64,000 nt of DNA from Escherichia coli (GTDB lineage: Bacteria; Pseudomonadota; Gammaproteobacteria; Enterobacterales; Enterobacteriaceae), in the NCBI RefSeq assembly GCF_965641715.1, contig NZ_OZ282453.1; one strand, 5' to 3'. Every line of letters starts with the position of its first letter. The first letter of the stretch is position 1. A program made the translations under genes and the position numbers. Under the pieces are notes generated by a model that was not told where the DNA came from, ran no database searches, and saw only the letters and a program-made list of their open reading frames with translations. Below are positions 5,402 through 37,993 of the stretch, piece after piece.

Positions 5402-6085
5402 TTATTTTTTGTTTTTTCGCTGCCGAGTTTCAGCAGATTGAACAGTGTCGAACTGGAGATTGGCCATATTGATGGACAACTTCAGATACTTCAGGTTATT
5501 AGGCGAAACGCCTTTTAATGTCAGATTAATGTCTTGCCATTGACCAGGCATTAATTGCAGAGTGGAATTCAGAGCGGTATTGAAAAGTAATTGTTGCCAC
5601 TTCGCCAGAGCTTTGGCATCGGTGGGCCTTTCATTGCCCCATGTAGCATGAAAACCAATATTTGATACGGGAACGCTTAATAGGTTGACCAGCGAAATAC
5701 GAATAACGCTGCCGTTTTCAACTGCATCAATAGCCAGCACCCGACCCGCCAAACCGACAGAGCCGTTATTTAAAATGAAGTAGTGTGTTTGTGCTGGGTT
5801 AAATTCTGTGAAGACAAATTCATCCTGCTTTTCTTTAACTCCCTTCACCACACTAGCAAGCGTTTTGGTACTACTTATGATGGCAGTTTGCTGTTTTTCA
5901 AATAGTTCTATCTTGCGTTTATCTTGTTCTTGTTGTTTTTCAAGTTGCTCTATTTTACTTTTTTGCAACTCTTGCTGTTTGGAAAGATCGTCGATTAGTT
6001 TTGCTTTTCCAATATAGTCACACCCTGTCAACATGCAGAGTGGCGATATCATTAACAAGCTTAATAGTATCTTTTTTAGATTCAT
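5402..6085 (-). CDS. SadB-like inner-membrane lipoprotein, 227 aa, putative adhesin surface-display helper
   Basis: Signal peptide with lipobox LTGC followed by Asp at +2 (CDY), an inner-membrane retention signal; coiled-coil-prone Gln/Glu/Lys-rich region; start has SD aaaggaa; 43 bp upstream of and co-oriented with the adhesin gene, as in Salmonella sadB-sadA. Confidence 0.7.
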   Translation of the reverse strand: MNLKKILLSLLMISPLCMLTGCDYIGKAKLIDDLSKQQELQKSKIEQLEKQQEQDKRKIELFEKQQTAIISSTKTLASVVKGVKEKQDEFVFTEFNPAQTHYFILNNGSVGLAGRVLAIDAVENGSVIRISLVNLLSVPVSNIGFHATWGNERPTDAKALAKWQQLLFNTALNSTLQLMPGQWQDINLTLKGVSPNNLKYLKLSINMANLQFDTVQSAETRQRKNKK

Positions 6086-11376: not shown

Positions 11377-11912
11377 AAAAACACCCCTTCTTATGTTTGC
11401 TGTCGCGCAGGCTGGAAGCCCGAGGTTTTTTGTTAATGTGGCGGCAGAGGTAGCCGGACCTTGTAGATACTGCGAAATCTGGCACTGAATCGGTTAACTG
11501 TCCAGTCGACGGCCTTTTGTGTGATATCAATCACATAAATATAGGGGGTAGAGAGGTAATTGACGTGACGTTCATCACAAAACGCTTGTGTAAAAAAGCA
11601 ACAAGGCGGCGATTTTCGCTAAAAATGGCATTTAAATGTGAGTAGTGTCACATTTTTGTTTTGATGGTTTGTTGAATCTTTGTGATCTGAATCACAAGAT
11701 ATTTTCTTACGGCGTTCACCTGATGTGATCTACAGCATGTTATGCCTTCGTCATACAATCGTTATGTAACTAAGCAACTCATCACCTCTAAAAATTATTC
11801 TTTGGTGTTATGGCGAGAATCGCGAACCCGGATTATTGTCAAAATATCAGCCTGACTCCCTTCTGGCTGCCAGCCAAAAAACAACACTGATAAACGTGAA
11901 TCCGAGGCAAAT
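11377..11912. promoter_or_regulatory. mtl operon regulatory region, divergent from yibI, with multiple CRP sites
   Basis: Perfect CRP consensus TGTGA-N6-TCACA at 11520-11535 (tgtgatatcaatcaca) and 11681-11696 (tgtgatctgaatcaca), plus a half-site-rich element at 11565-11579; the mtl promoter is known to carry several CRP sites. Confidence 0.7.
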
Positions 11913-20467: not shown

Positions 20468-20494
20468 TATAAGAAGCTGGTCGCATTGGGTATT

Positions 20495-20582
20495 CATTGC
20501 CTGATGCGACGCTTACGCGTCTTATCATGCCTACGGGACCTGACCGTAGGCCGGATAAGGCGTACACGCCGCATCCGGCATA
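20495..20582. repeat. REP pair (BIME) downstream of aldB
   Basis: Units gcctgatgcgacgcttacgcgtcttatcatgcctac and gtaggccggataaggcgtacacgccgcatccggc. Confidence 0.65.
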
Positions 20583-21010
20583 AACAAAGCGCACGTTGTT
20601 ACAATTTACGTTTTAAACCTACGTGCGCAATAACCCAGACTACGCCAACAGAAGTGCGTTTCTGGGGCGTGTTTTGCCAGGAGTTTAATCTCGCGTTTCG
20701 ATGGTGAGCGGGCGAACCAGGCCATAAATCACCATTGGCGTTCCGAGGCCAATCAGCAATAAACGGTAGATAATTGAAGGTTTAATACGCTTAATCTGCA
20801 TTGTGGATGTTTTACTGAAGTTATTCATTAGTTTGGCTGATAGTTCCATTATTTCAATATGATAAGCCTCGACCTGTTAAAAAGCCAGGCAGCACACTTC
20901 AGGAAGTATATAAAAAACAATATGTCGTTATATAAATAAGGAAATTGCACTGCATCATGGCATTTAATAATATGCGTTAATTGTTCATTTTTATATTCTC
21001 TGAGGGAAAT

Positions 21011-21334
21011 ATGTTCCTGGATTATTTTGCACTGGGAGTGCTTATTTTTGTATTTCTGGTGATATTCTATGGGATTATTATTTTACATGATATTCCCTAC
21101 CTGATTGCTAAAAAACGTAATCATCCTCATGCCGACGCCATTCATGTTGCTGGTTGGGTGAGTCTTTTTACGCTGCATGTTATCTGGCCATTTTTGTGGA
21201 TTTGGGCCACGCTTTACCGCCCGGAGCGGGGATGGGGAATGCAAAACCATGATTCATCCGTTATGCAACTGCAACAGCGCATTGCCGGGCTGGAGAAACA
21301 GCTCGCCGACATCAAATCCTCTTCTGCCGAGTAA
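21011..21334 (+). CDS. yiaW: DUF3302-type small membrane protein YiaW, 107 aa
   Basis: ORF track starts at a TTG (20981); ATG at 21011 gives [23 protein letters not shown]..., nearly identical at the N-terminus to YibI. Confidence 0.85.
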
Positions 21335-21339
21335 TACTT

Positions 21340-22476
21340 ATGGATTTACTGATTATTTTGACCTATGTGGCTTTTGCATGGGCAATGTTTAAGATCTTCA
21401 AAATTCCCGTAAATAAATGGACCATTCCCACAGCGGCCCTGGGTGGAATATTTATTGTCAGCGGTCTAATTCTGTTAATGAACTATAACCATCCGTATAC
21501 CTTTAAAGCGCAAAAAGCGGTTATTTCTATTCCTGTTGTCCCACAGGTGACTGGTGTGGTGATTGAAGTGACGGATAAGAAAAATACGCTGATTAAAAAA
21601 GGTGAAGTGCTATTTCGACTGGACCCGACGCGTTATCAGGCGCGGGTGGATCGGCTGATGGCGGATATCGTTACCGCAGAACATAAACAGCGGGCGTTGG
21701 GCGCAGAGTTAGATGAGATGGTGGCGAATACTCAGCAGGCAAAGGCCACGCGGGATAAATTCGCTAAAGAGTACCAGCGTTACGCACGCGGCAGCCAGGC
21801 GAAAGTAAACCCGTTTTCAGAACGCGATATTGATGTGGCACGGCAAAATTATCTGGCGCAGGAAGCCTCCGTAAAGTCATCGGCGGCGGAACAAAAACAG
21901 ATCCAGAGCCAGCTGGATAGCCTGGTGTTGGGTGAACATTCTCAAATCGCCAGCCTGAAAGCGCAGCTCGCGGAAGCAAAATATAACCTTGAGCAGACGA
22001 TAGTGCGTGCGCCGAGCGATGGTTATGTGACCCAAGTGCTGATTCGTCCGGGTACCTATGCCGCGTCGCTGCCGCTACGTCCGGTGATGGTGTTTATACC
22101 CGATCAGAAACGACAAATCGTGGCGCAGTTCCGTCAGAACTCCTTGCTGCGACTGGCTCCTGGCGACGATGCGGAAGTGGTGTTTAATGCTCTGCCAGGT
22201 AAGGTATTCAGCGGTAAGCTGGCAGCCATTAGTCCAGCCGTTCCCGGCGGAGCTTATCAGTCGACCGGCACCTTACAGACGTTAAACACAGCGCCGGGTT
22301 CAGATGGCGTTATCGCGACCATTGAACTGGATGAGCATACTGATTTGAGCGCATTACCAGACGGTATTTACGCCCAGGTGGCGGTCTACTCTGATCATTT
22401 CAGCCATGTCTCGGTGATGCGCAAAGTACTGTTACGCATGACCAGCTGGGTGCATTACCTTTATCTCGATCATTAA
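21340..22476 (+). CDS. yiaV: HlyD-family membrane-fusion-like protein YiaV, 378 aa
   Basis: Same architecture and length as YibH; C-terminus [20 protein letters not shown] is nearly identical to that of YibH. Confidence 0.88.
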
Positions 22477-23447
22477 TCTTCGCTTTCCGCCGCTTGTTCA
22501 GGCCGCAGTTGCTGCGACTGAGCAAGCTGGTGGCGAATTTCACGCAGCATTTCATCCAGCACATACTGGACCCGCCAGGGCTGGTATTCCCGTTTACGGA
22601 AGATAGCCACCAGATCCAGCCACCATTCATACGGGTGCTGAAAGCAGGGCACCAGCGTGCCGTCTTGCAGATCGCTCTGCACACTTTTGTCTGGCGCAAA
22701 CACAATCCCCAGGTGATTTCGTGCCAGCTCCAGCGCCGATTGCGTGTTATCGCAAACGTAATTTCCCTTCACGCGATAATCCCGCACCTCTTTACTCCCG
22801 GCGACGTTGAAGCGCCAGATATTCGCGTCGTCGATCATCATCGAGTCGATCAAAATACAGGAGTGATGTTCGAGTTCGTCAGGACGGCTAATGGGATGTT
22901 TCTCAAGATAGCGCTGGCTGGCATAAGCGGTTACGGCATATTGGGTAATAAAACTGGCAACCAGCGATTCATCTTTTGGTGGGGCATAGCTGATTAAAAC
23001 ATCACAATCATCAGGAAATTCGACGCCTTCATAAAAGGCATTACGCTCAAGATTGCAGGTTTTTAGCGATAAGGTGATATCACCGATATCTTTAATTTTA
23101 TCGATTACATGTTTGGATAAATAGGTAATTATGCCGGTTGGGGCGTAGATGGTGACCCGACCACGTTTCTCATGCTTATAATCTGCAATAAAATTATTAA
23201 GCTGCTCGTTTCTGTCCAGCATGTCGTTGATGTACGGTAACAGCGCGGTACCAAAAGGTGTGAGCATCAGCTGCCGGGTGGTTCGGTCAAAGACTTTTAA
23301 ACCCACTTTTGATTCAAAATCAGCAAGGTATTTGCTGACGTTGGCCTGTGCGATGCCAAGTACAGTCGCGGCATGGCTGATATTTTCACTGGCAGCGATT
23401 ACCGAGATAATTTTTAACTCCCGGTACTTAAGTTGTAATTTTGTCAT
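22473..23447 (-). CDS. yiaU: LysR-family transcriptional regulator YiaU, 324 aa
   Basis: N-terminal LysR helix-turn-helix; convergent with yiaV, stop codons overlapping. Confidence 0.88.
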
Positions 23448-23570
23448 CGCAACAGCCCAATTATATATAATTTTATATATTACTATATAAATATGAATCT
23501 TGCACCGGAGAAATTGTAAGCATTACTATGCCGACTCTTTTTTATCTTATTTTAAAATGGAATACCGGAC

Positions 23571-24311
23571 ATGTTAATTAACCGCAATATTGTGGCGTTA
23601 TTTGCGTTGCCTTTTATGGCAAGCGCAACTGCTTCTGAATTATCCATTGGTGCCGGTGCGGCTTATAATGAATCGCCTTATCGCGGTTATAATGAAAATA
23701 CAAAGGCAATTCCCCTGATTAGTTATGAAGGTGATTCTTTTTATGTTCGTCAGACCACGTTAGGTTTTATTCTGTCGCAAAGTGAAAAAAATGAACTTAG
23801 CCTGACCGCATCCTGGATGCCGCTGGAATTTGACCCTGCCGATAATGACGATTATGCCATGCAACAGCTTGATAAGCGTGATAGTACGGCTATGGCGGGG
23901 GTTGCCTGGTATCACCACGAGCGTTGGGGAACCGTGAAAGCCTCTGCAGCTGCGGACGTTCTGGATAACAGCAACGGCTGGGTGGGGGAGCTATCGGTAT
24001 TCCACAAAATGCAGATAGGTCGTCTGTCGCTGACACCTGCGCTAGGCGTTCTCTATTATGACGAGAATTTCAGTGACTATTACTATGGCATTTCAGAGAG
24101 TGAGTCCCGTCGTAGCGGTCTGGCAAGTTATTCCGCGCAGGATGCCTGGGTGCCCTATGTCAGCCTGACGGCAAAATACCCGATAGGAGAGCACGTCGTA
24201 TTGATGGCGAGCGCAGGATACAGCGAGCTGCCGGAAGAGATTACCGACAGCCCGATGATTGATCGTAATGAGAGTTTTACCTTTGTCACCGGCGTGAGCT
24301 GGCGTTTTTAA
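23571..24311 (+). CDS. yiaT: MipA/OmpV-family outer-membrane protein YiaT, 246 aa
   Basis: Signal peptide and C-terminal aromatic residue (...GVSWRF), typical of a beta-barrel protein. Confidence 0.85.
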   Translation: MLINRNIVALFALPFMASATASELSIGAGAAYNESPYRGYNENTKAIPLISYEGDSFYVRQTTLGFILSQSEKNELSLTASWMPLEFDPADNDDYAMQQLDKRDSTAMAGVAWYHHERWGTVKASAAADVLDNSNGWVGELSVFHKMQIGRLSLTPALGVLYYDENFSDYYYGISESESRRSGLASYSAQDAWVPYVSLTAKYPIGEHVVLMASAGYSELPEEITDSPMIDRNESFTFVTGVSWRF

Positions 24312-24361
24312 TTCACCGGTGGATGTCGGTGCGGCTGGCCTACGCTCTCGCACCGACTTGT

Positions 24362-24447
24362 ATGCCTGATAAGACGTGTTAAGCGTCGCATCAGGCAATG
24401 TGCTCCTTACGTTGGATGCGGCGCGAGTGCCTTATCCAACCTACGGA
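24362..24447. repeat. REP pair between yiaT and the accessory hydrolase gene
   Basis: Units gcctgataagacgtgttaagcgtcgcatcaggc and ggatgcggcgcgagtgccttatccaacctacgg; the second overlaps the hydrolase stop. Confidence 0.55.
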
Positions 24448-26411
24448 TGGCAATGCTTTTCCTCATTCACCCAGATCCGCATTTCGCCTTCACCCCGGTT
24501 GGCCCAGCTAAACCACGGGATAAAGGTCAGAGTTTGCGTCTGGCGTTTGGCTGGCGCGCTGTCGTAATGCCACAGCGGTTGCTGCTCTGGATTGCTCTGT
24601 TCATACCGGTAACCCGGTGCCTGGATTAAGATCTTATGGCTAAACAATCCCTTGCCTTCAAATGTCGTAAATGGCGCATCGGTGGGCAGCCACAGATTAT
24701 GCAGTGACTCGCCGTTGTCGGCCTGTTCCAGGCAATACACCAGCGGGCCGCGCTGAATCGCCACTTTTCCGGCGACGTGACGCACCAGCGGGTTACCGTA
24801 AACGCGGCGTACCGGCATCGGCAAAGTCAGATTCAGCGTATCGCCCTCCTGCCATTCGCGGGTAATGTGCAAATACCCTTTACGAATATCCTGCTCGACC
24901 TCTTCCCCATTCAATATGATCTGCGGCTGTGTGCACCAGTCCGGCAGACGTAAAGCCAGCGTATGACGTACCGGCTGGGGCGATTCAACCGCAATCGTCA
25001 CCTGCTCCTGCCACGGATAGTTCCCGCTAACCCGCAGGCGCAGCGTGCCATTTTCTACCGGCACTTCCATGCTGTTTCCTGCGTATATGTTGATATACAA
25101 CGCATCTTCACGCGGCGTGTAGAGATAATGACCAATCGAGGTCAGCACGCGGGCGATATTTGGCGGACAACAAGCGCAGCCAAACCAACGCTGGCGGATC
25201 GGTTTAACGTGATCGTAGATATGGTTGAATTTCAGCGATTTTGGATGTACTTCCAGCGGATTCACATAGAAGAAATGTTTGCCATCCAGCGCCATGCCGC
25301 CGAGCACGGTGTTGTACAGTGCACGCTCCATCACATCGGCATATTGACTGTCGCCTTCCATTTCCAGCATTCGTCGGGCAAACATCATCAGGCCGATGGA
25401 GGCGCAACTTTCAGCGTATACCGTGTCATTCGGCAGATCGTAATCGCTAGTGAACGCTTCGCCGCTGCTTTGCGAGCCAATGCCGCCGGTAATATATAAC
25501 TGACGCTGGGCCATATTGTTCCACAGCCGCAGGCAGTCCTGACGCTTGCTGTCATCGTGACTTAAACGCGCGAGATGCGCGACGCCGGTCATCAGATAGA
25601 CAAAACGTACCGCGTGACCGATGGCGGTTTGCTGTTGCGCAAGGGGTAAATGTGCCTGGCTGTAGGCTTTGTCTTTCACCATCCACGCCGGGCCGTAGGT
25701 GTGCCAGTGCGATGTCTGCCCGCGCTTTTCATATTCCTGGTCGTAATAGTGCGGTTGCGCACCACGCTGTTCGACAAAATAGTTCGTCAGCGCCAGGTAG
25801 CGCGGCTCTTCAGTCACTTCATACAGGCGCATTAGTGCCAGTTCAATTTCCGGGTGACCAGGATAACCGTGTAACTTACTTTCATCTGGACCAAATACGC
25901 TGTCGATATGATCGGCCAGGCGGCAAACGACCCCCAGCAAGCGCCGTTTTCCCGTGGCCTGGAAGAAGGCGACTCCGGCTTCAATCAGATGACCTGCGCA
26001 GTAAAGTTCATGACACTCCGCCAGATTGCTCCAGCGTTCTTCGGGTGCTTTTACCGTAAAGTAAGTATTGAGATAGCCGTCTTCGCATTGGGCGGAGGCG
26101 ATCAGTTCGATTACCTCGTCGGCGGTTTTTTCCAGTTCGGCGTCCGGCTTCTGGCACAGCGACCAGGCTACCGCTTCCAGCCATTTGGCGACGTCGCTGT
26201 CCTGAAACACCATCCCGTAAAATTCACCCTCCTGAAGTCCGGCGGCAATGCGAAAGTTTTCAATCGCATGGCTGGGTTCCGCTTCTGGGATACGATCGTT
26301 CAAGGCATCCCACTGATAAGGAATCACCACGTCGCGGACCAGTTGTTGGTACTGACCGAGGAACGGATCGCTGACCGTCAGTTTATGCAGATCGACTTCC
26401 GAAATGTTCAT
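24441..26411 (-). CDS. Glycoside hydrolase family 127-like protein (DUF1680; beta-L-arabinofuranosidase-type), about 656 aa
   Basis: Motifs AESCASIG (Glu-x-Cys) and WFGCACCPPN (Cys pair) resemble the Zn/catalytic-Cys site of GH127 HypBA1; start refined to ATG 26411 with SD aaggag overlapping the upstream stop. Confidence 0.75.
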   Translation of the reverse strand: MNISEVDLHKLTVSDPFLGQYQQLVRDVVIPYQWDALNDRIPEAEPSHAIENFRIAAGLQEGEFYGMVFQDSDVAKWLEAVAWSLCQKPDAELEKTADEVIELIASAQCEDGYLNTYFTVKAPEERWSNLAECHELYCAGHLIEAGVAFFQATGKRRLLGVVCRLADHIDSVFGPDESKLHGYPGHPEIELALMRLYEVTEEPRYLALTNYFVEQRGAQPHYYDQEYEKRGQTSHWHTYGPAWMVKDKAYSQAHLPLAQQQTAIGHAVRFVYLMTGVAHLARLSHDDSKRQDCLRLWNNMAQRQLYITGGIGSQSSGEAFTSDYDLPNDTVYAESCASIGLMMFARRMLEMEGDSQYADVMERALYNTVLGGMALDGKHFFYVNPLEVHPKSLKFNHIYDHVKPIRQRWFGCACCPPNIARVLTSIGHYLYTPREDALYINIYAGNSMEVPVENGTLRLRVSGNYPWQEQVTIAVESPQPVRHTLALRLPDWCTQPQIILNGEEVEQDIRKGYLHITREWQEGDTLNLTLPMPVRRVYGNPLVRHVAGKVAIQRGPLVYCLEQADNGESLHNLWLPTDAPFTTFEGKGLFSHKILIQAPGYRYEQSNPEQQPLWHYDSAPAKRQTQTLTFIPWFSWANRGEGEMRIWVNEEKHCHP

Positions 26412-26421
26412 CTTGTGCTCC

Positions 26422-27822
26422 TTAAGGCTGTACATGACGCTGACGCAGGTCGGTAGCTATGCGTGACATCATAGGATTATTGAGTTTGCAAAAGCGGATC
26501 GCCCCTGCCAGCAGCAGGTGGAATAGCGCAGGCAGTAATGTTTCCATCGCCGCGATCCCGCCAAGCGAACTGGCGGTCTGGTTTTCCACGCCAGGCTGGT
26601 AGGCGACAAAAATAAACAGCAGGCTGATGATCCCGGCGCTGGAGGCCCAGGCCAGCTTGATGAAAAACAGATTGAAGGCGAAGTTCATGCCGGAAGAACG
26701 TACGCGGGTTTTCCACTCGCCGTAGTCATCGGCAAAGGCCATCAATGAGAAGTGCAGTGGCAATGTGAAGCCAAGAATCACGCCATTACCGAGGATCACC
26801 GCCAGCCACAGCGTTTGATAAGCCGGGCCGGAGGGCAGGAACCACATCAACACCGCCAGCGCAGCGAGGAGCTGGTTGGTGTAGTAGTAAATTTTGACGG
26901 TATCGAAACGCCGCGTTAACGGGCTGACAATCACCGAGCCGATAATGGAGGCGAAGGTGACCATGGTGAAGAACAGCGACGTGTAGCCCGTACTGCCTTG
27001 TAAGACGTAGGTAATGAAGTACATATACCCACCGCCGCGAATGTTAAAGACGTTAATCAGCAGGAAAGACATGACCAGCATCAGCAGCAGTTGGTCGTTG
27101 TTCCGCAGCCCGGCAAGATGTTCGCGCAGGGTAAATTTCCCCATTGTGGAGAGTGGCACCCGTTCACGAACCCAGAAGAAACAGCACAGAAACATCACCA
27201 CGGCGATGGCGCACAGCACGCCGACGCCCAGTTGATAGCCGCGCGCGGCATTACCCTGACCGAAGAGATCTACCATCCACGGTAAGCCTACCGAAACCAG
27301 AAATCCCGCTACGCCACAGAGAACGAATCGCCAGGACTGGCAGGAGATCACTTCATTGTGGCGGGTGGTCATGGTGTTGATCAGCGCGCAGTACGGTACG
27401 TTGATGGCGGTATAACCGACTGAAAGGAGCAGGTAAGTACCGAACGCCCAGGCGATTTTTACTCCCATGCTGGCATCTGGCACGGTGAACGTCAGGATGC
27501 CGATAATGCCGATGGGAATGGCAATCCATAGCTGCCACGGACGAAAGCGCCCCCATCGGCTTTGCGTCCGGTCGGCAATGACGCCCATCACCGGGTCGGA
27601 GATAGCATCAAACACGCGCAGTGCAATAAACAGCGTGCCAACCAGCGCCGGAGTTAATCCAAAAACGTCGGTGTAGAAAAAGGTGAGAAAGTTCATGATC
27701 AGGCAAGTTATTACGGTGCCGCCTGCGTCACCCAGGCCGTAGCCTATTTTTTCCCGTACAGATAACGCATCGTCAATTTTACCTTTAGCGATATCAGCGG
27801 TAGTAATCGGTGTAGAGGTCAT
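26422..27822 (-). CDS. Glycoside-pentoside-hexuronide (GPH) family sugar:cation symporter, 466 aa
   Basis: About 12 predicted transmembrane segments; GYGLGD motif near the N-terminus as in MelB/YicJ-type transporters; SD gagga upstream of the start. Confidence 0.75.
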
Positions 27823-28047
27823 AGATATTCCTCGTGAATAGGGAGCAATTTTTAGTTTTATTGAAATGACCTGATTAATTCTGCCGTGAACGGGAATATC
27901 AACAAGGCGAGAAAAGAGTAAAAAAAGGTGACGATTCCGACCTGAATTTAAAAGTGTGAAATGGATCAGGTGAAATTAATGTTTTTGATTAATAATCAAA
28001 AGGTAATGTGTTTAATCATTGATGAATAAGCGGGAAATTACATATCA
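27823..28047. promoter_or_regulatory. AT-rich divergent promoter region between the symporter operon and the AraC-type regulator, with direct repeat GTGAAAT-N7-GTGAAAT
   Basis: Read directly; direct repeats at 27954-27977 are typical of AraC/XylS-type operator half-sites. Confidence 0.35.
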
Positions 28048-28863
28048 ATGCTCGAATTATCCATGACGTTACCGATTAAAGTGCAAAATGGTGGATTATT
28101 TATTTCCCGTGGCGTAGGGAGGCATCCTGCAAGGCGGCTGGAGTCATGGGAAATTATCTTTGTCGAAAAAGGTCGATTAACGATTCAGGAAGAAGAACGG
28201 ATATTTCTGGTCGATGCGGGAGAGAGTTTATTACTCTGGCCGAACCGACAACATGTTGGGGTGGAGGATTTTCCCGCCGATCTCAAATTTTACTGGCTGC
28301 ATTTTGAGGTTAAAGCGCCGGACAACGACCCTCGCTGGCTTACTCATCTTAGCGTGCCGCAACAAACGAAGGTTGTCGATCCGCAGGCGCTGGTGGCCCT
28401 GTTTCGCCAGTTCTTAAGCGAACAGGAAAAGCATCAACGCACTCCGGCGCTGGAGTTTATTGTGCTGCTCATTTTGCAGCAGCTCACCCGTGACGCGCGT
28501 CTTGATGAACAGGCCGATGGCGCAGGCACCACCCTTGCCTGGAAAGCGCAGAAACTGATCCGCACGCAATATCATCGCCCGCTTTCTACGGCGCTTCTGG
28601 CCCGCGAGCTGTACTGCAATGCCGATTATCTTGGGCGCGTCTACCGGCGGGTGTTTCATCTGACGTTAACAGAAGCAATCCATCGCCAGCGGGTGCGCGA
28701 AGCCGAAAAGCTGTTAATTAGCGAAGCGCGATCGCTCACGGAAGTGGCGGCGTTGTGCGGGTTTAATGACGTTGGCTATTTCCGGCAGATTTTTCGCAAA
28801 CACACCGGTTTAACGCCAGCAGCGTGGAAGCGGCGTTACAGCAAGGAACATATCAATTCGTAG
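28048..28863 (+). CDS. AraC/XylS-family transcriptional regulator, 271 aa
   Basis: N-terminal cupin-like sugar-binding domain and C-terminal dual helix-turn-helix (ALCGFNDVGYFRQIFRKHTGLTPAAWKRRY); start could alternatively be Met6 at 28063. Confidence 0.75.
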   Translation: MLELSMTLPIKVQNGGLFISRGVGRHPARRLESWEIIFVEKGRLTIQEEERIFLVDAGESLLLWPNRQHVGVEDFPADLKFYWLHFEVKAPDNDPRWLTHLSVPQQTKVVDPQALVALFRQFLSEQEKHQRTPALEFIVLLILQQLTRDARLDEQADGAGTTLAWKAQKLIRTQYHRPLSTALLARELYCNADYLGRVYRRVFHLTLTEAIHRQRVREAEKLLISEARSLTEVAALCGFNDVGYFRQIFRKHTGLTPAAWKRRYSKEHINS

Positions 28864-28865
28864 TG

Positions 28866-28890
28866 CCGGGGCGATGAAGCCCCGGCGTGA
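28866..28890. terminator. GC-rich hairpin between the convergent AraC-type gene and sgbE (possible bidirectional terminator)
   Basis: gccggggcgatgaagccccggc palindrome directly after the AraC-type stop. Confidence 0.45.
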
Positions 28891-28894
28891 GGGA

Positions 28895-29590
28895 TTACTG
28901 CCCGTAATAGGCATTGTCTCCATGCTTACGCAGGTAGTGCTTATCCAGCAGTTCGTTTTGCATGGCAGGGAGCTGCGGCGCAAGCTGGCGCGAGAACAGG
29001 CCCATATAGGCGCACTCTTCCAGCACCACGGCGTTATGCACCGCATCGGCGGCGTTTTTTCCCCAGGCGAACGGGCCGTGAGAATGTACCAGTACCGCCG
29101 GGATTTGTGCCGGGTTCAAACCACGTTCTTCGAAGGTTTGAATGATCACTTCGCCAGTCTGGTATTCATACTCGCCGTTGATCTCCTCTGCTGTCATCTG
29201 GCGCGTGCAGGGGATGGTACCGTAAAAATAATCGGCGTGGGTGGTGCCCCAGGCGGGGAGATCCAGCCCGGCCTGCGACCAGATGGTAGCGTGGCGCGAG
29301 TGGGTATGCACAATACCGCCAATTTCGGCATAGCGACGGTAGAGCGCCAGATGCGTTGGCGTGTCGGACGAGGGCTTTTTGCTGCCTTCCACCACTTTAC
29401 CGCTGGCTATCTCAACCACCACCATATCGTCGGCGGTCATCACGTCGTACTCGACGCCGGAAGGTTTGATTACCATCCATTGCCGCGTTTCGTCTACCGC
29501 GCTGACATTGCCCCAGGTGAACGTCACCAGATGGTGAGCGGGAAGTGCCAGATTTGCCGCCAGCACGTCGGCTTTCAGTTGCTCTAACAT
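28895..29590 (-). CDS. sgbE: L-ribulose-5-phosphate 4-epimerase, 231 aa
   Basis: Class II aldolase/epimerase sequence; length and order sgbH-sgbU-sgbE. Confidence 0.92.
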
Positions 29591-30444
29591 ATAAATCCAG
29601 CCTCCTGCATACGCGCTTCAATCCAGCGCCGCGCCTGAATAATCTCCAGCACCGGCTCTTTGGCTTTTTCGGTCCACATCTCAATCAGGAAAGAACCGCG
29701 ATAGTTCAGTTCATGCAGCGTTTTGAAGATGCCAACGAAATCGACGCAGCCTTCGCCAAACGGCACATCACGGAACTGTCCGGGACTTTGCTCGGTGACT
29801 GGCTGGGTGTCTTTCAGGTGGATGGCGGCGATACGGTCAATGCCCAGTTTCAGTTCGGCGGGAACATCATTGCCCCAGGCGCTGAGGTTGCCGACGTCCG
29901 GGTAGACGGTGAACCACGGCGAGGCGAGCATCTCGTCCCATTTTTTCCATTTGCTGATGGAGTTCATAAACGCGGTATCCATAATCTCCACCGCCAGCAT
30001 TACTTGTGATGCCGCCGCCTGTTCGACTGCCCACGCCAGCCCTTCAGCAAAACGTTGTTGGGTGCCTTCGTCGTGGTCTTCGTAATAGACGTCATAACCT
30101 GCCAGCTGGATTGTGCGAATGCCGAGATCGCGCGCCAGGCGAATCGCTTTACTCATTATTTCCCGCGCCCGTTCGCGCACTGCCTCGTCCCGGCTGCCAA
30201 AGGGAAAACGACGATGGGCAGACAGGCACATTGACGGAATGGCAACACCCGTTTCGATCATCGCAGTGACCAGCGAAGCACGTTGTGCGGCGCTCCAGTC
30301 AAGACGTGAGAGCCGTTCGTCGGTTTCATCCACCGACATTTCGACGAAATCAAAACCGCAGCTTTTTGCCAGCACCAGCCGCTCCGGCCAGGAGAGATCT
30401 TTCGCCAGCGCTTTTTCATAAATCCCTAACGGATGATTACGCAC
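29584..30444 (-). CDS. sgbU: L-xylulose-5-phosphate 3-epimerase, 286 aa
   Basis: ORF track frame is longer; start placed at GTG 30444 ([11 protein letters not shown]...) to give the K-12 length; overlaps sgbH 3' end by 8 nt. Confidence 0.85.
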
Positions 30445-31099
30445 GCTTGCCTCCCCAGATAGCGTCGATTTGCGCATGAAAATCAGCGGCCACCTGTGCC
30501 GGATTTGCCGCGCCTGCCAGTGCTCTCCCGGCAATAAACGCTTTCACGCGGATATCTTTAAACAGCGGCAGGTCAGCAGGGGTAATCCCGCCAGTAATGG
30601 AAAGCTCAAGGCCGATATCTGAAAGCGCCTTCATGCGTGCCAGATCGGCTTCACCCCACTGTTGCCCGCTGGCCTGTGCATCACGACCGCGATGATAAAT
30701 GGCCTGCCGCACGCCAATACGATGCCAGTCGCGGGCGTCGTCCAGCGTCCAGTTACCGAACAGCTCTATCTGAATTTCACCCCCGCAGCGTTGCGCCATT
30801 GCGTGGCCTTTTTCTACCGTCGCGAGCGGCGCGGCGCAGATGATGGTCATCCAGTTAGCGCCTGCGCCAAACGCCTGTTGCGCGAGCGTTTCACCAGCGT
30901 CGGCGACCTTCCAGTCAGCAACGATGATTTTGTCCGGGCACTGTTCGCGCAAGGCTTTCACCGCGCCCAGCCCTTCGTTTAAACAGAGAATGGTGCCAGC
31001 TTCGACGATATCGACGCTGTCTTTTAACAGCGTCACGTCGCGCTGTGCGTCTTCAAGTGATGAGTGGTCGAGGGCCAGTTGCAGAAGTGGTCGGCTCAT
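30437..31099 (-). CDS. sgbH: 3-keto-L-gulonate-6-phosphate decarboxylase, 220 aa
   Basis: OMP-decarboxylase-like fold sequence; start overlaps the lyxK stop. Confidence 0.92.
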
Positions 31100-32592
31100 A
31101 ATGTGTGCTCCTTGATGCGGGCGTGAAAGCCCTGAAGTGCGGCAATGAGATGCTGATAGCGTTGATATTTTTGTTGGTAAAGCTGATGGGCGGTCATATC
31201 CGGTAGCAGGGTGCGTACCGGGTGCTGCAAGTCACGTTGGGCTTCGCTGAAATCGCGATAAACCCCGGTGCCGACGCGGGCGGCAAGTGCCGCACCAAAG
31301 CAGCCGGTTTCTTCCACCTGCGGCAGCTCAATACGCAGGCCGCTAACGTCCGCCAGCATTTGCATCCAGACATCGGAGTGCGCCGGGCCGCCAGTCACGC
31401 GCAGGGTGTGCACATCAGTAAAACGTTCGCGCATCCGGTTGAGATGAGTCATATGGCAGAACACCACCCCTTCATAGATGGCCTGCAACAGGTGCGCGCG
31501 GGTGTGAATGGCCTGCATCCCGTAGAAACCGCTGGTCATCTCGAGTCCGGCGTTGCTGCCGTACAGGAATGGCAGGAAAAAGAGATCGCCACCGGCCTTC
31601 GGTAAGCTGGCAACGGCCTGGTTGATCTCATCAAACGAGATTTCTCCCCACTGTGCGGTAAACCATTCGAGGTTGCCGGAAGAGGTAGGGCTGGCTTCGT
31701 GAACGATAAATTCACCATCGTTAACGTAGCGACCATAGACATACGGATGCGCTTCACCGTCACGTAAACCACGGGTTATGCCGCTGGTCACCGCCCAGGT
31801 GCCCATCACCGCATTAAGGGTAAATTCGTCTTCGATCCCGGCACAGAGTGCGGTGGAAACCACATCAAACAGGCCGCCGACAACGGGCGTACCCGCTTTC
31901 AGACCGGTCAGTACGGCTGTCTGAGCGGTGATCTCCCCGCAGATTTCGGCAGATCCGACAACAGGCGGCAGGGTGTGATTGATTTCAGCGATCCCCAGCC
32001 AGTCGGTGAGGCACGGGTCATATTCCCCAAGACTCATGTTGTAGAGATTGGACTCAGAAATATTGCTCTCTTCACAGCCTTTGACGCCGGTTAAACACCA
32101 GCGCAGGTAGTCGTGCGTCATCATCACGCAGCCAATTTGCGCGTAGCGTTCTGGTTCGTGCTCTTTCAGCCAGCGTAACAGCGACACCGGATGCCCGGTC
32201 CACAAGGTTTGTCGGGTCAACGGGTAGAGTTTTTCCGGGATGCCATCTTCCTGCCAGCGACGAACGATTTCCATCGCCCGGCGATCCGAGGACAAAATGG
32301 CGTTACCGAGCGGCTTGTTGTTTTTATCCAGCAAAAACAAGCCCTTTCCCTGTGCGGAGATACCGATACCCACTATTTGCTCCCCGCTAACGCCGGAATG
32401 GGTAAGCAGGGCGCGAATGACAGCCATGCAGCATTGCCACAGTTCTGCCATATCGCGCTCTGCCCAACCTGGCTGCGGGCTTAATGCGCACAGCGGCAGG
32501 CGCTGCACGCCTGCCTCCCGGCCTTCGCGGTCATACAGCCCGGCTTTCAGCCAGCTACCGCCACAATCTAACCCCAGCCAGTATTGCGTCAT
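31096..32592 (-). CDS. lyxK: L-xylulose/3-keto-L-gulonate kinase, 498 aa
   Basis: FGGY carbohydrate kinase family; length and position match. Confidence 0.92.
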   Translation of the reverse strand: MTQYWLGLDCGGSWLKAGLYDREGREAGVQRLPLCALSPQPGWAERDMAELWQCCMAVIRALLTHSGVSGEQIVGIGISAQGKGLFLLDKNNKPLGNAILSSDRRAMEIVRRWQEDGIPEKLYPLTRQTLWTGHPVSLLRWLKEHEPERYAQIGCVMMTHDYLRWCLTGVKGCEESNISESNLYNMSLGEYDPCLTDWLGIAEINHTLPPVVGSAEICGEITAQTAVLTGLKAGTPVVGGLFDVVSTALCAGIEDEFTLNAVMGTWAVTSGITRGLRDGEAHPYVYGRYVNDGEFIVHEASPTSSGNLEWFTAQWGEISFDEINQAVASLPKAGGDLFFLPFLYGSNAGLEMTSGFYGMQAIHTRAHLLQAIYEGVVFCHMTHLNRMRERFTDVHTLRVTGGPAHSDVWMQMLADVSGLRIELPQVEETGCFGAALAARVGTGVYRDFSEAQRDLQHPVRTLLPDMTAHQLYQQKYQRYQHLIAALQGFHARIKEHTL

Positions 32593-32595
32593 GGT

Positions 32596-33582
32596 TTATT
32601 GCACCTCATCCACGGCTTTCAGCAGATCAGCGCCCTGCGGCACATCTTTAACAAACATGTCACGAACCTGATTCCCCAGTGCGTCACTAAAGGCTTTGCG
32701 GTCGAGATCGGTAATCACTTCCACGCCCGCTTCTTTCATGCCGTCGATGATTTTTTGCTGATCTTCAGCAACCAGTTTGCGCTGATAGTTACCCGCTTCT
32801 TGTGCAGATGAAACTAGCGCCTGCTGGAACTCCGGACTTAAGTCATCAAACTTCGCTTTGTTGATCACCACCAGAAGCGGGGAATAGGCGTGGTGCGTCA
32901 GAGAAAGATACTTCTGTACTTCGAAAAATTTTGCTGACCAGACGACGTTGATCGGGTGTTCCTGAGCATCGATAGTGCGCGTTTCCAGCCCGGTATAGAC
33001 TTCGGCAAACGGCATCGGGATCGGGTTAGCGCCAAAAACTTTGAATGCCGCGATATTCATCGGACTATTGTTGGTGCGGATTTTCAGCCCTTTCAGGTCG
33101 GCGGGGGTTTTAACCGGTGCGCGCGAGTTGGTGACATCGCGCCAGCCGTTTTCCCAGTAGGCCAGTACTTTCAGTCCCTTACCTTCAAGGGAGACTTTCA
33201 GGTCATCACCGACTTTGCCGTCGAGCGTTTTATGCGCGTGAGCGGTATCGCGGAACAGGAAAGGGACGTCGAGCAGGTTGATGACGGGCGAGAGCCCCGT
33301 AAAGTTGTTAGAGCCAGACATCTCCATATCAATAGTGCCGCCACGTACGCCGCTGATCATCGCCTGCGCGTTACCGAGGGTGCTATCCGGGAACAGTTTT
33401 AATTTCAGCTCGCCTTTGGTTCTCTCCTGCAATAACTCATTGAATTTTTTCGCCGCAATATGTTGCGAGTCGGTTTGTGATGTTTCATAACCGAAACGTA
33501 AAGATTGTGCCGCCAGAGAAGATGTGCTGAATGCAGCCAGGCCAGCAATGAATAATGCATAGGTTACAGAGCGTAATTTCAT
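32596..33582 (-). CDS. yiaO: TRAP transporter periplasmic substrate-binding protein, 328 aa
   Basis: Signal peptide plus DctP-like sequence; order yiaM-yiaN-yiaO. Confidence 0.92.
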   Translation of the reverse strand: MKLRSVTYALFIAGLAAFSTSSLAAQSLRFGYETSQTDSQHIAAKKFNELLQERTKGELKLKLFPDSTLGNAQAMISGVRGGTIDMEMSGSNNFTGLSPVINLLDVPFLFRDTAHAHKTLDGKVGDDLKVSLEGKGLKVLAYWENGWRDVTNSRAPVKTPADLKGLKIRTNNSPMNIAAFKVFGANPIPMPFAEVYTGLETRTIDAQEHPINVVWSAKFFEVQKYLSLTHHAYSPLLVVINKAKFDDLSPEFQQALVSSAQEAGNYQRKLVAEDQQKIIDGMKEAGVEVITDLDRKAFSDALGNQVRDMFVKDVPQGADLLKAVDEVQ

Positions 33583-33594
33583 AATATTTTCCTT

Positions 33595-34872
33595 TTAATT
33601 AATCCATTTCAAAGGGAGGATGATGAGATCGGGAATAAAAACAAATACGACTAATAAGGAATATAAAACCAGGACATAAGGGAAAACGCCTCTGACTGCA
33701 TCATCGAATTTGAGTTTTGCCACCCCTGAAATAACGTTAAGCACATTACCGATAGGCGGTGTAATTAAGCCGATTGAGCAGTTAATGATAAACATGACAC
33801 CGAAATAAATCGGATCGATTCCTGCCTCTTTAACTAAAGGCATTAATACCGGGGTAAGAATTAATACCGTCGGCGTTAAATCCATGACCATGCCAACAAT
33901 CAGGATAGCCACCATAATGACGATAAACAGCAGACGCGGTGAATCGACCAACGGTTGTAGTAAATCAGAAACCATCATCGGCAGTTCAGCAATGGTAATC
34001 AGCCAGGCGGAAACTTGTGCCGAGGCCACCAGAAACATCACCACTGAGGTGGTTTTCGCCGCGCCAATAAGCACATGCCAAAGTGTGGCGAAGGTCATTT
34101 CACGGTAAATAACCGTGGCGACAAATAACGCATAGAAAGCAGCAACAGCCCCGGCTTCGGTAGGGGTAAACAGACCGGAGCGAAAACCCCCAATAATGAT
34201 GACCGGAAGAAACAGCGCCCAAATACCGGAGACAAAAGAGTGCCAGATTTCCTGCATCGTCGCTTTTTGCTGGCGGGGTAAATTAAGACGACTGGCCTGC
34301 CACCACCAGGTAAGCATCAGTGTTGCGCCCATCATAATGCCTGGGGCAATGCCCGCCATAAACAGCTTACTGATGGATAATCCGCTGGAAACACCGAAGA
34401 TAATAAATGGAATGGAAGGGGGAATAATTGGCGCGATAATTCCGCCAGAGGCAATTAGCCCCGCCGCCCGGTTGACCGGGTAGTTGGCGCTGCGCATCAT
34501 CGGCACCAGTAGAGCTGCAACGGCAGCGGTATCTGCAACGGCAGAACCGGAAAGGCTCGCCATAATCATTGCCGCCAGCACGCCGACGTAGCCAAGCCCA
34601 CCAGGCTTATGCCCCACCAGTTTCATCGGCAGGTCAACAATGCGTTTCGACAAGCCGCCCGCATTCATGATTTCACCCGCCAGCACAAAGAACGGGATCG
34701 CCAGCAGGGAGAAGCTGTCGGCACCGTTCACCAGCGTTTGTGCCATGATCTGGACATCAAACATATCCAGCCAGAACATTAACGCTGCGCCACATAACAA
34801 AAGCGCCCAGGCAATAGGCAAACCGATAGCAATGCCACCCAACAGGCAGCCCAGAAAAATCAGCACAGCCAT
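33595..34872 (-). CDS. yiaN: TRAP transporter large permease (DctM-like), 425 aa
   Basis: Polytopic membrane protein, DctM family. Confidence 0.92.
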   Translation of the reverse strand: MAVLIFLGCLLGGIAIGLPIAWALLLCGAALMFWLDMFDVQIMAQTLVNGADSFSLLAIPFFVLAGEIMNAGGLSKRIVDLPMKLVGHKPGGLGYVGVLAAMIMASLSGSAVADTAAVAALLVPMMRSANYPVNRAAGLIASGGIIAPIIPPSIPFIIFGVSSGLSISKLFMAGIAPGIMMGATLMLTWWWQASRLNLPRQQKATMQEIWHSFVSGIWALFLPVIIIGGFRSGLFTPTEAGAVAAFYALFVATVIYREMTFATLWHVLIGAAKTTSVVMFLVASAQVSAWLITIAELPMMVSDLLQPLVDSPRLLFIVIMVAILIVGMVMDLTPTVLILTPVLMPLVKEAGIDPIYFGVMFIINCSIGLITPPIGNVLNVISGVAKLKFDDAVRGVFPYVLVLYSLLVVFVFIPDLIILPLKWIN

Positions 34873-34874
34873 GA

Positions 34875-35348
34875 TTAAGCTCCTTGCGGTGGCGGCGTTA
34901 GAGAATTGCTACGCGTGATGAGTTGATATAAATGACGCAGTTCAAAGAAAGCGATAACGAGGCTGGTGGGCAGACAAGCGGCATACATCAGGCCGATGGG
35001 CAAACCGAGGATCGGTGAATAATCGCTCCAGTCCTGAATTGTTTTTAGCGTTGCGCCCCAGGCCAGTGCACTACAAATAAATAAGATTAAGGAATGGGTG
35101 ACCAGAGCGACTCGTCGCTGCCATGCGGGGGAGAGTTTCTCCACCAGAAAGGTGACCTGAACGTGGGCGTTATCCATAAAAGCCACAATCGCGCCAATAA
35201 ACGTTAACCAGACAAATAAATAACGTGACAATTCATCTACAGATAAAATGCTTGTCTGAAAACCATATCTTAAAATAATGTTTATAAACACAATACAGGA
35301 AAGTACGGCGAGATTAATCGCCAGTATTGCTTCGAGTATTTTTTTCAT
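34875..35348 (-). CDS. yiaM: TRAP transporter small permease (DctQ-like), 157 aa
   Basis: Four predicted transmembrane helices; immediately upstream of yiaN. Confidence 0.9.
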
Positions 35349-35465
35349 AGCTATTCCTTGAGGCGATGTCTGTCATAATTCAAGTTGCATGTGCAGCAAC
35401 CTGAATTATTAATATAGTTAGAGCAATAACATTACCCAGGCGTTCTGGCGTAGACGATTATTCGA

Positions 35466-35936
<471 letters not shown>

Positions 35937-35944
35937 TTATCTCC

Positions 35945-36943
35945 TCATAACGCCTGGATTTTGGCCCACACGCTGTCATCAACAGTGATGCCGTTACGGC
36001 GGTTTTCGGCCAGCAGGGTAGTAAATTCATGGCCGGGTAAGCGGATGGCCTGGTTTTCGTCAGCGCGTTCAGCGGTAGTAACGTAATCCATGATGCGTTG
36101 CAGCTTGGCATCGCGGGTGGGGCCGTCGATCAATTTATCCACTTCGATGGCGATAAAGATTTGCGAAACGCCGTATTCGTCGCTGTTGTCCTGGGTGACT
36201 TCGGCAACCGATGCGCCGTCGGAAAGGAGAGTAGCGATCATATCCAGCACAATCGACATGCCAGAACCTTTCCAGTAGCCCATCGGCAAAATGCGGCGAT
36301 TCTTCTCGATAACGCCAGGTTCTTTGGTCAAATTGCCCTCATCATCAAAGCCACCATCGACCGGGAGCTGACGGCCCGCCAGGCGGTTAACTTCTAACAT
36401 GCCGTAAGAGAACATCGACATCGACATATCGACCATGGTGATCGGCGTGGAAGGAATGGCGACGATCAGCGGGTTAGTGCCGATGCGACACTCTTTTGCG
36501 CCCCACGGCGGCATTACGGCGATGGAGTTGGTCCAGCAAATGCCAATATAGCCTTTTTCCGCCGCCTGCCAGCCGTAGCTGCCGCCGCGCATCCAGTGGT
36601 TGGCATTACGAAGTGCCACCAGACCAATACCGTGATCGGCAGCCAGTTCAATGGCGCGATCCATCATCTTTTTCGCCGTCAGGTTGCCGATCGAACGCTG
36701 GGCATCCCACTGTTCAATTGCGCCGAGGCTGGTTATACGTTTGGGTTGGGCATCAGGAATGATATCGCCGTTTTCCAGTTGTTGAATGAAACGAGGGAAA
36801 CGATTAACGCCGTGAGAATAAACGCCGGATTCGGTGGTGCGGGCGAACATCTCTGCACAGGCGTCAGCCGTTTCACTGTCAACGCCGCGTGAAATTAAGA
36901 CTCGATTAAAGGCTGCTTTTAACTGCTCAAATGTCACTTTCAT
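35945..36943 (-). CDS. yiaK: 2,3-diketo-L-gulonate reductase, 332 aa
   Basis: Ldh2-family dehydrogenase sequence; first gene of the operon, divergent from yiaJ. Confidence 0.92.
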
Positions 36944-37144
36944 CCCAGGCTTCCTTGTTTTTTTTGATCGCTTTTTTGGCTTAAAATTTCAATATGCGAA
37001 ACTTGATTTCAAATATATCGATCACTTTTTAACAAAGCAATCGGATTGACGAATTCAAAAAAACTTAAGAATCAAGTGGTTATAAATTATCTGTCGAGAT
37101 CGTGAACTACGGCACACTTTGCGCTACCATCAGGACGCGACAAA
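36944..37144. promoter_or_regulatory. Divergent yiaJ / yiaK-operon promoter region (site of YiaJ autoregulation and operon repression)
   Basis: Intergenic position between divergent genes; function from established knowledge of the yiaK-S operon; no specific operator resolved by eye. Confidence 0.4.
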
Positions 37145-37993
37145 ATGGGGAAAGAAGTGATGGGGAAAAAAGAGAACGAGATGGCGCAGGAAAAAGAGCG
37201 TCCAGCCGGAAGCCAGAGTCTGTTTCGCGGGTTGATGCTGATTGAGATTTTGAGCAACTATCCAAACGGTTGTCCGTTGGCTCATCTTTCGGAGCTGGCT
37301 GGTTTAAATAAGAGTACCGTCCATCGCTTATTGCAGGGATTACAGTCCTGCGGCTATGTGACCACCGCGCCCGCTGCAGGGAGTTATCGCCTGACCACCA
37401 AATTTATTGCCGTCGGGCAGAAGGCGCTATCTTCGCTGAATATCATTCATATCGCCGCTCCGCATCTTGAGGCACTGAACATCGCCACTGGTGAAACCAT
37501 TAACTTCTCCAGCCGCGAAGACGATCACGCTATTTTGATTTATAAGCTGGAACCCACAACCGGGATGCTGCGAACCCGTGCCTATATTGGCCAGCATATG
37601 CCGCTCTACTGTTCCGCAATGGGCAAGATCTACATGGCGTTTGGTCACCCGGACTACGTGAAGTCATACTGGGAAAGCCATCAGCATGAGATCCAGCCGT
37701 TAACCCGCAATACCATTACCGAGCTGCCCGCGATGTTCGACGAACTGGCGCACATTCGTGAAAGCGGAGCGGCGATGGACAGAGAAGAAAACGAACTCGG
37801 CGTCTCCTGTATTGCTGTTCCGGTGTTTGATATTCATGGGCGGGTGCCGTACGCCGTGTCGATTTCGCTTTCGACATCACGTCTGAAACAGGTGGGAGAG
37901 AAAAATCTCCTGAAACCACTGCGTGAAACCGCGCAGGCTATTTCTAATGAACTGGGATTTACTGTCAGGGATGACCTGGGCGCGATCACATAA
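37145..37993 (+). CDS. yiaJ: IclR-family transcriptional repressor of the yiaK-S operon, 282 aa
   Basis: IclR-type N-terminal helix-turn-helix (LSELAGLNKSTVHRLLQGL) and C-terminal effector domain. Confidence 0.9.
   Translation: MGKEVMGKKENEMAQEKERPAGSQSLFRGLMLIEILSNYPNGCPLAHLSELAGLNKSTVHRLLQGLQSCGYVTTAPAAGSYRLTTKFIAVGQKALSSLNIIHIAAPHLEALNIATGETINFSSREDDHAILIYKLEPTTGMLRTRAYIGQHMPLYCSAMGKIYMAFGHPDYVKSYWESHQHEIQPLTRNTITELPAMFDELAHIRESGAAMDREENELGVSCIAVPVFDIHGRVPYAVSISLSTSRLKQVGEKNLLKPLRETAQAISNELGFTVRDDLGAIT

Follow-up and report, generated by a model that had tools for sequence, protein, structure and literature searches.

The mel operon of Escherichia coli is composed of a divergently transcribed AraC-family regulator, a cation symporter of the glycoside-pentoside-hexuronide (GPH) family and a cytoplasmic exo-glycosidase, with a CRP site located in the shared control region. 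Here we describe a three-gene module of the same layout, which is located between yiaT and sgbE in a 64-kb stretch of E. coli DNA (contig NZ_OZ282453.1; this whole stretch is referred to as the window and all positions are counted in it). An AraC/XylS-family transcription regulator of 271 aa (28048-28863, plus strand) is divergent from an operon on the minus strand in which a GPH-family cation symporter of 466 aa is the first gene (26422-27822) and a 656-aa glycoside hydrolase of family 127 (GH127), a predicted β-L-arabinofuranosidase, is the second (24441-26411). The shared control region also contains a CRP-like site, which is recognised by its sequence conservation. Unlike in melR-melAB, the transporter precedes the hydrolase, which is the reverse of the mel order, the enzyme belongs to GH127 rather than to GH4, and the module proteins fall below the equivalog cutoffs for MelB and MelR. 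A similar scheme, where a small glycoside is imported and then cleaved in the cytoplasm, is found in the GPH-plus-glycosidase pairs yagG-yagH, yicJ-yicI and uidB-uidA of E. coli, but the enzyme family and the predicted sugar of the module are different from theirs and its transporter scores below the YagG cutoff.

On the side of the enzyme, the closest described systems contain two β-L-arabinofuranosidases. HypBA1 of Bifidobacterium longum (PDB 3WKW/3WKX) is a retaining 'cysteine glycosidase' in which Cys417 is the nucleophile, Glu322 is the acid/base and zinc is bound by a (Cys)3-Glu site (PMC8106489). It acts inside the cell on imported β-1,2-L-arabinofuranobiose (β-Ara2) (PMC8106489; PMC6085000), which is freed outside the cell by HypBA2 (PMC8106489). 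The hydrolase of the module belongs to the same family as HypBA1, has the same fold of three domains and agrees with it in the acid/base Glu, the nucleophilic Cys and the (Cys)3-Glu site, and it is likewise predicted to be an intracellular enzyme that is paired with a dedicated importer. Its identity to HypBA1 is clearly lower than that to the Geobacillus enzyme, and whereas B. longum uses an ABC transporter together with the extracellular HypBA2 (GH121) and HypAA, the module has a GPH symporter, an AraC-type regulator and no linked extracellular enzyme. The second enzyme, Ara127N (AraN) of Geobacillus stearothermophilus T-6 (PDB 4QJY/4QK0), is identical to the module hydrolase in all the active-site motifs but is a Gram-positive enzyme. 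Its gene is presumably part of a large L-arabinan utilisation cluster and, to our knowledge, has no GPH or AraC partners.

We consider it reasonably probable that the module is a melR-melAB-like unit for the uptake and cleavage of a β-L-arabinofuranoside, where both the substrate and the inducer are our inference. In this scheme, the AraC-family protein would act as an activator rather than as a repressor and, together with CRP, would switch on the two-gene operon upon ligand. The symporter would import a small β-L-arabinofuranoside, for which the best candidate is β-Ara2 or a similar fragment that derives from arabinan or from hydroxyproline-rich glycoproteins of plants and would be released extracellularly by other organisms or by plant turnover. 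The Cys-nucleophile GH127 enzyme would then hydrolyse the imported glycoside in the cytoplasm to L-arabinose, which would enter the araBAD pathway. Cross-feeding is proposed because Escherichia has no homologues of the extracellular hypBA2 and hypAA (PMC6085000). Cleavage of an imported glycoside by a GH127 enzyme had been suggested in an earlier note on this stretch, and the suggestion finds support at the level of the family and of the predicted active site.

The family assignment of the hydrolase rests on three Pfam domains, PF07944 (residues 12-427, E = 1.1e-111), PF20736 (438-532) and PF20737 (534-649), which confirm the GH127/DUF1680 membership claimed earlier. This trio, together with full-length alignments to 4QJY and 3WKW, corresponds to the architecture of the family, in which an (α/α)6 catalytic domain is combined with middle and C-terminal β domains. 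The closest solved relative was found to be 4QJY, which is deposited as a GH127 β-L-arabinofuranosidase of G. stearothermophilus (782 bits, 55% identity over 628 aligned residues), and a crystal structure at this identity settles the predicted fold. HypBA1 (3WKW) follows at 507 bits, while the two Bacteroides GH127 structures score lower, with 385 bits for 6EX6 (BT3674) and 318 bits for 5MQO (the aceric-acid enzyme BT1003).

Our HMMER alignment with HypBA1 shows that residues E322, E338, C340, C417 and C418 of that enzyme correspond to E318, E334, C336, C414 and C415 of the module hydrolase. The catalytic pair is conserved, with C414 at the nucleophile position (HypBA1 C417) and E318 at the acid/base position (HypBA1 E322), and the residues of the putative (Cys)3-Glu zinc site (E334, C336, C414 and C415) are all conserved as well. 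The earlier note had pointed to a Glu-x-Cys motif and a Cys pair as matching the GH127 active site. Both are present (AESCAS at residue 333 and GCACCPP at residue 411), and as their residues align exactly with those of HypBA1 they can be identified as the zinc and nucleophile motifs. In addition, His134, His186 and His266 are aligned with His142, His194 and His270 of HypBA1, which we take to be sugar ligands. No hydrophobic segment was observed at the N-terminus of the hydrolase (MNISEVDLHKLTVSD...), which bears out the reported lack of a signal peptide, and the enzyme is predicted to be cytoplasmic and zinc-dependent.

The transporter was placed in the GPH family by TIGR00792, which it matches with 331.7 bits over residues 25-462 of 466 against a curated cutoff of 231.35, and by MFS_2 (E = 3.4e-72), as had been claimed for it. 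Its top NCBIfam subfamily match is YagG, at 353.8 bits under a cutoff of 610. This specific equivalog was therefore rejected, as were MelB (206.9 against 456) and the glucuronide transporter GusB (190.7 against 528). The protein aligns over its full length with Salmonella MelB, and the helix-II Asp pair of the cation site is kept (D72 and D76, which correspond to MelB D55 and D59) while N58 of MelB is replaced by S75. Import would presumably be coupled to a cation.

The regulator was observed to contain AraC_binding (residues 26-132, E = 1.3e-9) and HTH_18 (184-263, E = 4e-19), the two domains expected of the AraC-family protein that had been described here, so that an N-terminal cupin-type ligand domain is followed by a C-terminal double helix-turn-helix (HTH). 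AraC proper was rejected (61.1 bits against an equivalog cutoff of 208) and the MelR equivalog score was 38.6 against a cutoff of 253. Certain sources label the protein 'Arabinose operon regulatory protein', a label that is unsupported, and the database names are otherwise at the level of the family.

The spacer between the regulator and transporter genes (225 bp, AT-rich with a GC content of 0.39) was aligned across 68 loci and four conserved elements were found in it. Nearest to the transporter is the block GCAGAATTAAT..GGTC (27867-27884, minus strand), which holds ATTAAT (27874-27879), a candidate -10 of the promoter of the GPH-GH127 operon; the GCAGAATTAAT part lies at about 27874-27884 and is 57 nt from GTCGGAAT in 66 of the 68 loci. 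The distance from this block to the ATG of the transporter is variable (52-97 nt), which fits a transcribed leader. The second element is a near-invariant block of 44 bp, AGGTCGGAATCGTCAYCTTTTTATACTTTT..CCTTGTTG (27900-27943, minus strand), a candidate tandem site for the regulator of the module. Its GTCGGAAT was present in every one of the 68 loci and its internal spacing of 35 nt in 65 of them. The third is the CRP-like site TGTGAAATGGATCAGG (27955-27970), which is two mismatches from the consensus. Its TCACA half is invariant (68/68), G4, A5, T6 and C7 of the other half are conserved in 64-66 loci, and the spacing from TCACA to the GTCGGAAT block is 18 nt in 64. The fourth is a perfect palindrome, TTTTGATTA-A-TAATCAAAA (27983-28001), which holds TTAATAATCA, a candidate -10 or operator of the regulator gene. 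The palindrome core TGATTATT was found in 58 of the 68 loci, and in 51 of these 58 it is separated from the CRP half-site by 39 nt.

These elements can be arranged into a putative promoter. For the transporter gene it would consist of TTGATA (27897-27902), a spacer of 17 nt and the ATTAAT hexamer, and transcription would begin near 27867. Relative to this start, the 44-bp block would reach from about -76 to -33, which is the geometry of AraC-family promoters with tandem half-sites reaching into the -35, and the CRP site would be centred near -95. For the regulator gene, the candidate AATAAT (27991-27996), with a predicted start near 28003 on the plus strand, would place the same CRP site near -41. 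Matches to the CRP pattern in the window as a whole show no excess over chance (31 observed against 26.7 expected) and the CRP call therefore rests on its conservation across genera. As a separate observation, three perfect matches and one with a single mismatch to the CRP consensus TGTGA-N6-TCACA were found within 180 bp at 11520-11696, which we take, from the K-12 map, to be probably the multi-CRP promoter region of mtlA.

Several observations weigh against the β-L-arabinofuranoside assignment. A scan of the control region for consensus sigma-70 promoters and terminators returned nothing and the hexamers assigned by hand fall short of its criteria; this fits dependence on an activator, yet it makes the assigned hexamers weak evidence. 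The sensor domain of the regulator has no informative solved homologue, since the PDB search matched DNA-binding domains alone. The sugar-binding residues K18, D19 and D124 of MelB are not kept in the transporter, where G35, T36 and N141 are found instead, and its sugar specificity can therefore not be read from them. Other specificities exist within GH127, so that membership of the family leaves the substrate unfixed. For example, the family includes the aceric acid hydrolase, whose model NF049879 matches the module enzyme with 455.8 bits, and GH127 enzymes are also used in carrageenan catabolism (PMC5698469). Our literature search found comparative-genomic mentions but no biochemical or genetic study of a GH127 module in E. 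coli or other enterobacteria, in agreement with the earlier statement that substrate and inducer have no experimental definition in E. coli. Furthermore, a 2021 study of arabinose in O157:H7 states that E. coli cannot access L-arabinofuranose (L-Araf) directly and leaves the module unmentioned (PMC8489885); the substrates in that study were α-linked only.

Some of these points would also suit a module of the same architecture and mechanism that serves another substrate, either a different furanoside or an unusual sugar, with a product other than L-arabinose. We regard this as unlikely. In its favour are the other activities known in GH127, the unlikeness of the transporter to MelB at the sugar site and the position of the module, which in 24 of the 67 species loci described below is beside the L-xylulose/2,3-diketo-L-gulonate operon and not beside ara genes. 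However, among the solved structures the two β-L-arabinofuranosidases stand far ahead of the other matches, at 782 and 507 bits compared with 385 and 318 for the Bacteroides pair, and both the catalytic residues and the three His positions match HypBA1. The score for the aceric acid hydrolase is far below its equivalog cutoff of 950 and that specific assignment was rejected, 5MQO reaching just 318 bits.

The three genes of the module are intact in the window. Open reading frames (ORFs) were surveyed over 21000-32000, where the gene order is yiaW, yiaV, yiaU, yiaT, the GH127 gene, the GPH gene, the spacer, the AraC-family gene, sgbE, sgbU, sgbH and lyxK. All three ORFs lie at the coordinates and on the strands first reported, and RefSeq agrees with the boundaries: identical genes and boundaries are annotated in an E. 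coli genome of 99.8% identity, under the names 'glycoside hydrolase family 127 protein', 'MFS transporter' and 'AraC family transcriptional regulator'. A gap of 10 bp separates the stop codon of the symporter from the start of the hydrolase, and a Shine-Dalgarno (SD) sequence is found ahead of each of the two genes, GAGGAA for the transporter and AAGGAG, 6 nt upstream of the start at 26411, for the hydrolase. This SD sequence and the RefSeq start favour the 656-aa protein over an ORF of 664 aa that starts at 26435. On the left, the module is flanked by yiaT (23571-24311, plus strand), which encodes an outer-membrane protein of the MipA/OmpV family according to its RefSeq name and an OmpV-like NCBIfam match and which lies outside the module. 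The right flank is sgbE (28895-29590, minus strand), named likewise in RefSeq, for an L-ribulose-5-phosphate 4-epimerase (NF009002, 509.8 against a cutoff of 386). It is the final gene of the yiaK-sgbE operon and is convergent with the regulator of the module.

A pair of repetitive extragenic palindromic (REP) elements, which resembles a bacterial interspersed mosaic element (BIME), was observed in the gap between yiaT and the hydrolase gene at about 24362-24456. An exact canonical REP core, GCCTGATGCGACGC, is present at 24383-24396 on the minus strand, the stretch is made of two imperfect palindromes with an RNA folding z of -3.9, and the second REP overlaps the stop codon of the hydrolase. 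At the other end, a GC-rich hairpin, GCCGGGGC-N6-GCCCCGGC, is located at 28865-28886 and is a candidate terminator shared by the regulator gene and sgbE, given its location between these convergent genes. The REP elements and the hairpin of the earlier note are thus real, although the hairpin is not at 28866-28890 as was given there. They do not serve as boundaries of the module, as the note had it; the hairpin sits between convergent genes and is also kept in K-12, as described below.

The distribution of the module points to an old resident of this site. Relatives were scanned with one genome per species and, of the best 80 of 265 confirmed loci, 67 have the AraC-GPH-GH127 unit arranged as in the window and represent more than 25 genera. 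These include Citrobacter, Klebsiella, Raoultella, Enterobacter, Kluyvera, Leclercia, Lelliottia and Kosakonia, and further carriers are Phytobacter, Buttiauxella, Pantoea, Mixta and Salmonella diarizonae. The unit has sgbE as a neighbour in 24 loci, yiaT in 19 and both in 9, where both flanks were found in Citrobacter, Enterobacter, Lelliottia and Huaxiibacter. All three genes are under purifying selection, with dN/dS values of 0.025-0.064 for the hydrolase, 0.03-0.08 for the symporter and 0.05-0.10 for the regulator, and their dS is similar to the values for sgbE and yiaT when the same pairs of genomes are compared. The module is probably the ancestral arrangement at this site in Enterobacteriaceae, and the window carries its complete form.

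Three further observations were made among the relatives. In several Bradyrhizobium spp. (loci L073-L077 and L079), a GH127 protein shares 71-72% identity with the enzyme of E. coli and has no GPH or AraC partners; it is encoded next to a PAS histidine kinase and an S9 peptidase, a context that is uninformative. An identity that is surprisingly high between alpha- and gammaproteobacteria suggests horizontal transfer of the gene. Citrobacter gillenii and one gut Enterobacteriaceae isolate (L082, 3626-8357, and L081, 6578-9950) possess, besides the main module, a further and paralogous GPH+GH127 pair of about 70% identity. In the C. gillenii pair a LacI-family regulator replaces AraC and the site lies between ubiX and purF. 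In Escherichia whittamii (L004, 4657-6364), no sgbE match of at least 60% of the length was found between sgbU, which ends at 5508, and the AraC-family gene, which ends at 5552, and this suggests a further local deletion that removed sgbE.

Within E. coli, the presence of the module is variable. In K-12 (BW25113), yiaT and sgbE are separated by a spacer of 347 bp in which RefSeq annotates two pseudogene fragments. Compared with the window, 24339-24548 is deleted, which removes the REP elements and the 3' end of the hydrolase gene. The next 190 bp (24549-24738) are kept at 89.5% identity and correspond in frame to part of the C-terminal domain of the hydrolase, while the flanks are 97-99% identical. 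A second deletion covers 24739-28759 and spares the hairpin and ~100 bp at the 3' end of the regulator gene. The K-12 locus is a deletion scar with remnants of two of the three module genes. The earlier note held that yiaT and sgbE are adjacent in K-12 and that the module would not be found there; an intact module is indeed absent, but remnants of the hydrolase and regulator genes occupy the spacer and there is no clean junction.

A census of 5426 complete E. coli genomes was made, in which the module was counted when at least 80% of it was held and the scar when it was of the K-12 type and in one piece. The module was found in 2313 genomes (about 43%) and the K-12-type scar in 2461 (about 45%), among them K-12, O111:H8 and APEC O78. 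Other deletions affect the same region. In Nissle 1917 and similar strains, aldB is joined to sgbE and window positions 20469-28895 (~8.4 kb) are gone, which removes yiaW, yiaV, yiaU and yiaT together with the module and leaves a different GC hairpin at the junction (L083, 6954-7001). O157:H7 has kept the module and has lost 28876-37852 (~9 kb), from sgbE through most of yiaJ. The O157:H7 junction (28875/37853; about 8576 in L084) falls inside the 28865-28886 hairpin; the whole yiaK-sgbE operon is lost and a C-terminal pseudogene of yiaJ (IclR) is left. Taken together, the K-12 scar and the Nissle and O157 deletions mark the region as a deletion hot spot, and the module is polymorphic in E. 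coli through deletions and not through gain. In published clades that match phylogroups D and F, GH127 is present in 98.8-100%, compared with 29.5-67% in B2, A and B1/C (bioRxiv 10.1101/2021.10.19.464957), and GH127 has also been reported to co-segregate with invasive isolates from inflammatory bowel disease (IBD) (PMC11879602).

Variation was also seen in the regulator. Among module-positive E. coli, with H15 (NZ_CP182182.1) and H62 (NZ_CP043414.1) as the examples, some lack its gene, the query coverage ending at 3792 of 4601, and in others it is annotated just as 'helix-turn-helix domain-containing protein'. Such variants may be regulator-defective.

Repeated loss of this kind could mean that the module is a decaying and dispensable remnant in E. 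coli, which is intact in the window by chance and has no current role. At least two independent deletions remove it within the species, a third removes the neighbouring yiaK-sgbE operon, and the regulator is truncated or missing in certain genomes (H15 and H62). We nevertheless consider this quite improbable, as the dN/dS values are 0.04-0.08 within E. coli (window against O157) and 0.03-0.06 against E. whittamii, 2313 genomes retain at least 80% of the module and the regulatory blocks are invariant across genera. The framing of the earlier note implied instead an accessory island that was gained horizontally and entered between neighbouring yiaT and sgbE genes, perhaps by way of the REP elements or the hairpin. 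We hold this to be highly improbable, and the scar in K-12 and the synteny across genera refute it. In its favour, K-12 and over half of the complete E. coli genomes lack the module, REP elements lie on one side of it and the 71%-identical GH127 of Bradyrhizobium shows that the gene is able to cross phyla. However, K-12 retains the decayed 190-bp hydrolase piece and the 3' end of the regulator gene, the gene order and flanks are shared with Citrobacter, Enterobacter, Lelliottia and Huaxiibacter so that the site is occupied in other genera, the dS of the module equals that of the flanking core genes, its GC content (0.52-0.57) is that of the flanks, no integrase or transposase ORF was found in 21000-32000, as had been noted before, and the module is near-universal in phylogroups D and F.

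With the module understood as an ancestral unit that probably serves β-L-arabinofuranoside use, the gain in knowledge is incremental. Enzyme and transporter come from well-known families, the operon follows a familiar logic, and family-level gene names are already given in RefSeq. The module is an ordinary, annotated and experimentally uncharacterised member of known families. As K-12 has lost it, the standard laboratory picture of E. coli sugar use misses this module. Rather tentatively, we suggest that most Enterobacteriaceae and about 43% of sequenced E. coli, including O157:H7, ST131 and phylogroups D and F, may scavenge β-L-arabinofuranosyl disaccharides or glycosides by an unstudied route. 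The source would be plant extensins or arabinans, and other microbes, for example Bifidobacterium longum, or enzymes of the plant would free these sugars from them. If this is true, it would contradict the published claim that E. coli cannot access L-arabinofuranose and would account for a CAZyme that varies between strains and has been pointed out, but not followed up, in comparative studies. The repeated loss of the module, by the K-12-type scar and the Nissle-type deletion, would then mark differences between niches in the colonisation of gut and plants. Furthermore, a plant carbon source hitherto credited to bifidobacteria, Bacteroides and Xanthomonas would be open to many E. coli lineages and to most enteric genera, so that cross-feeding, both in the gut and on plants, would gain a further link.

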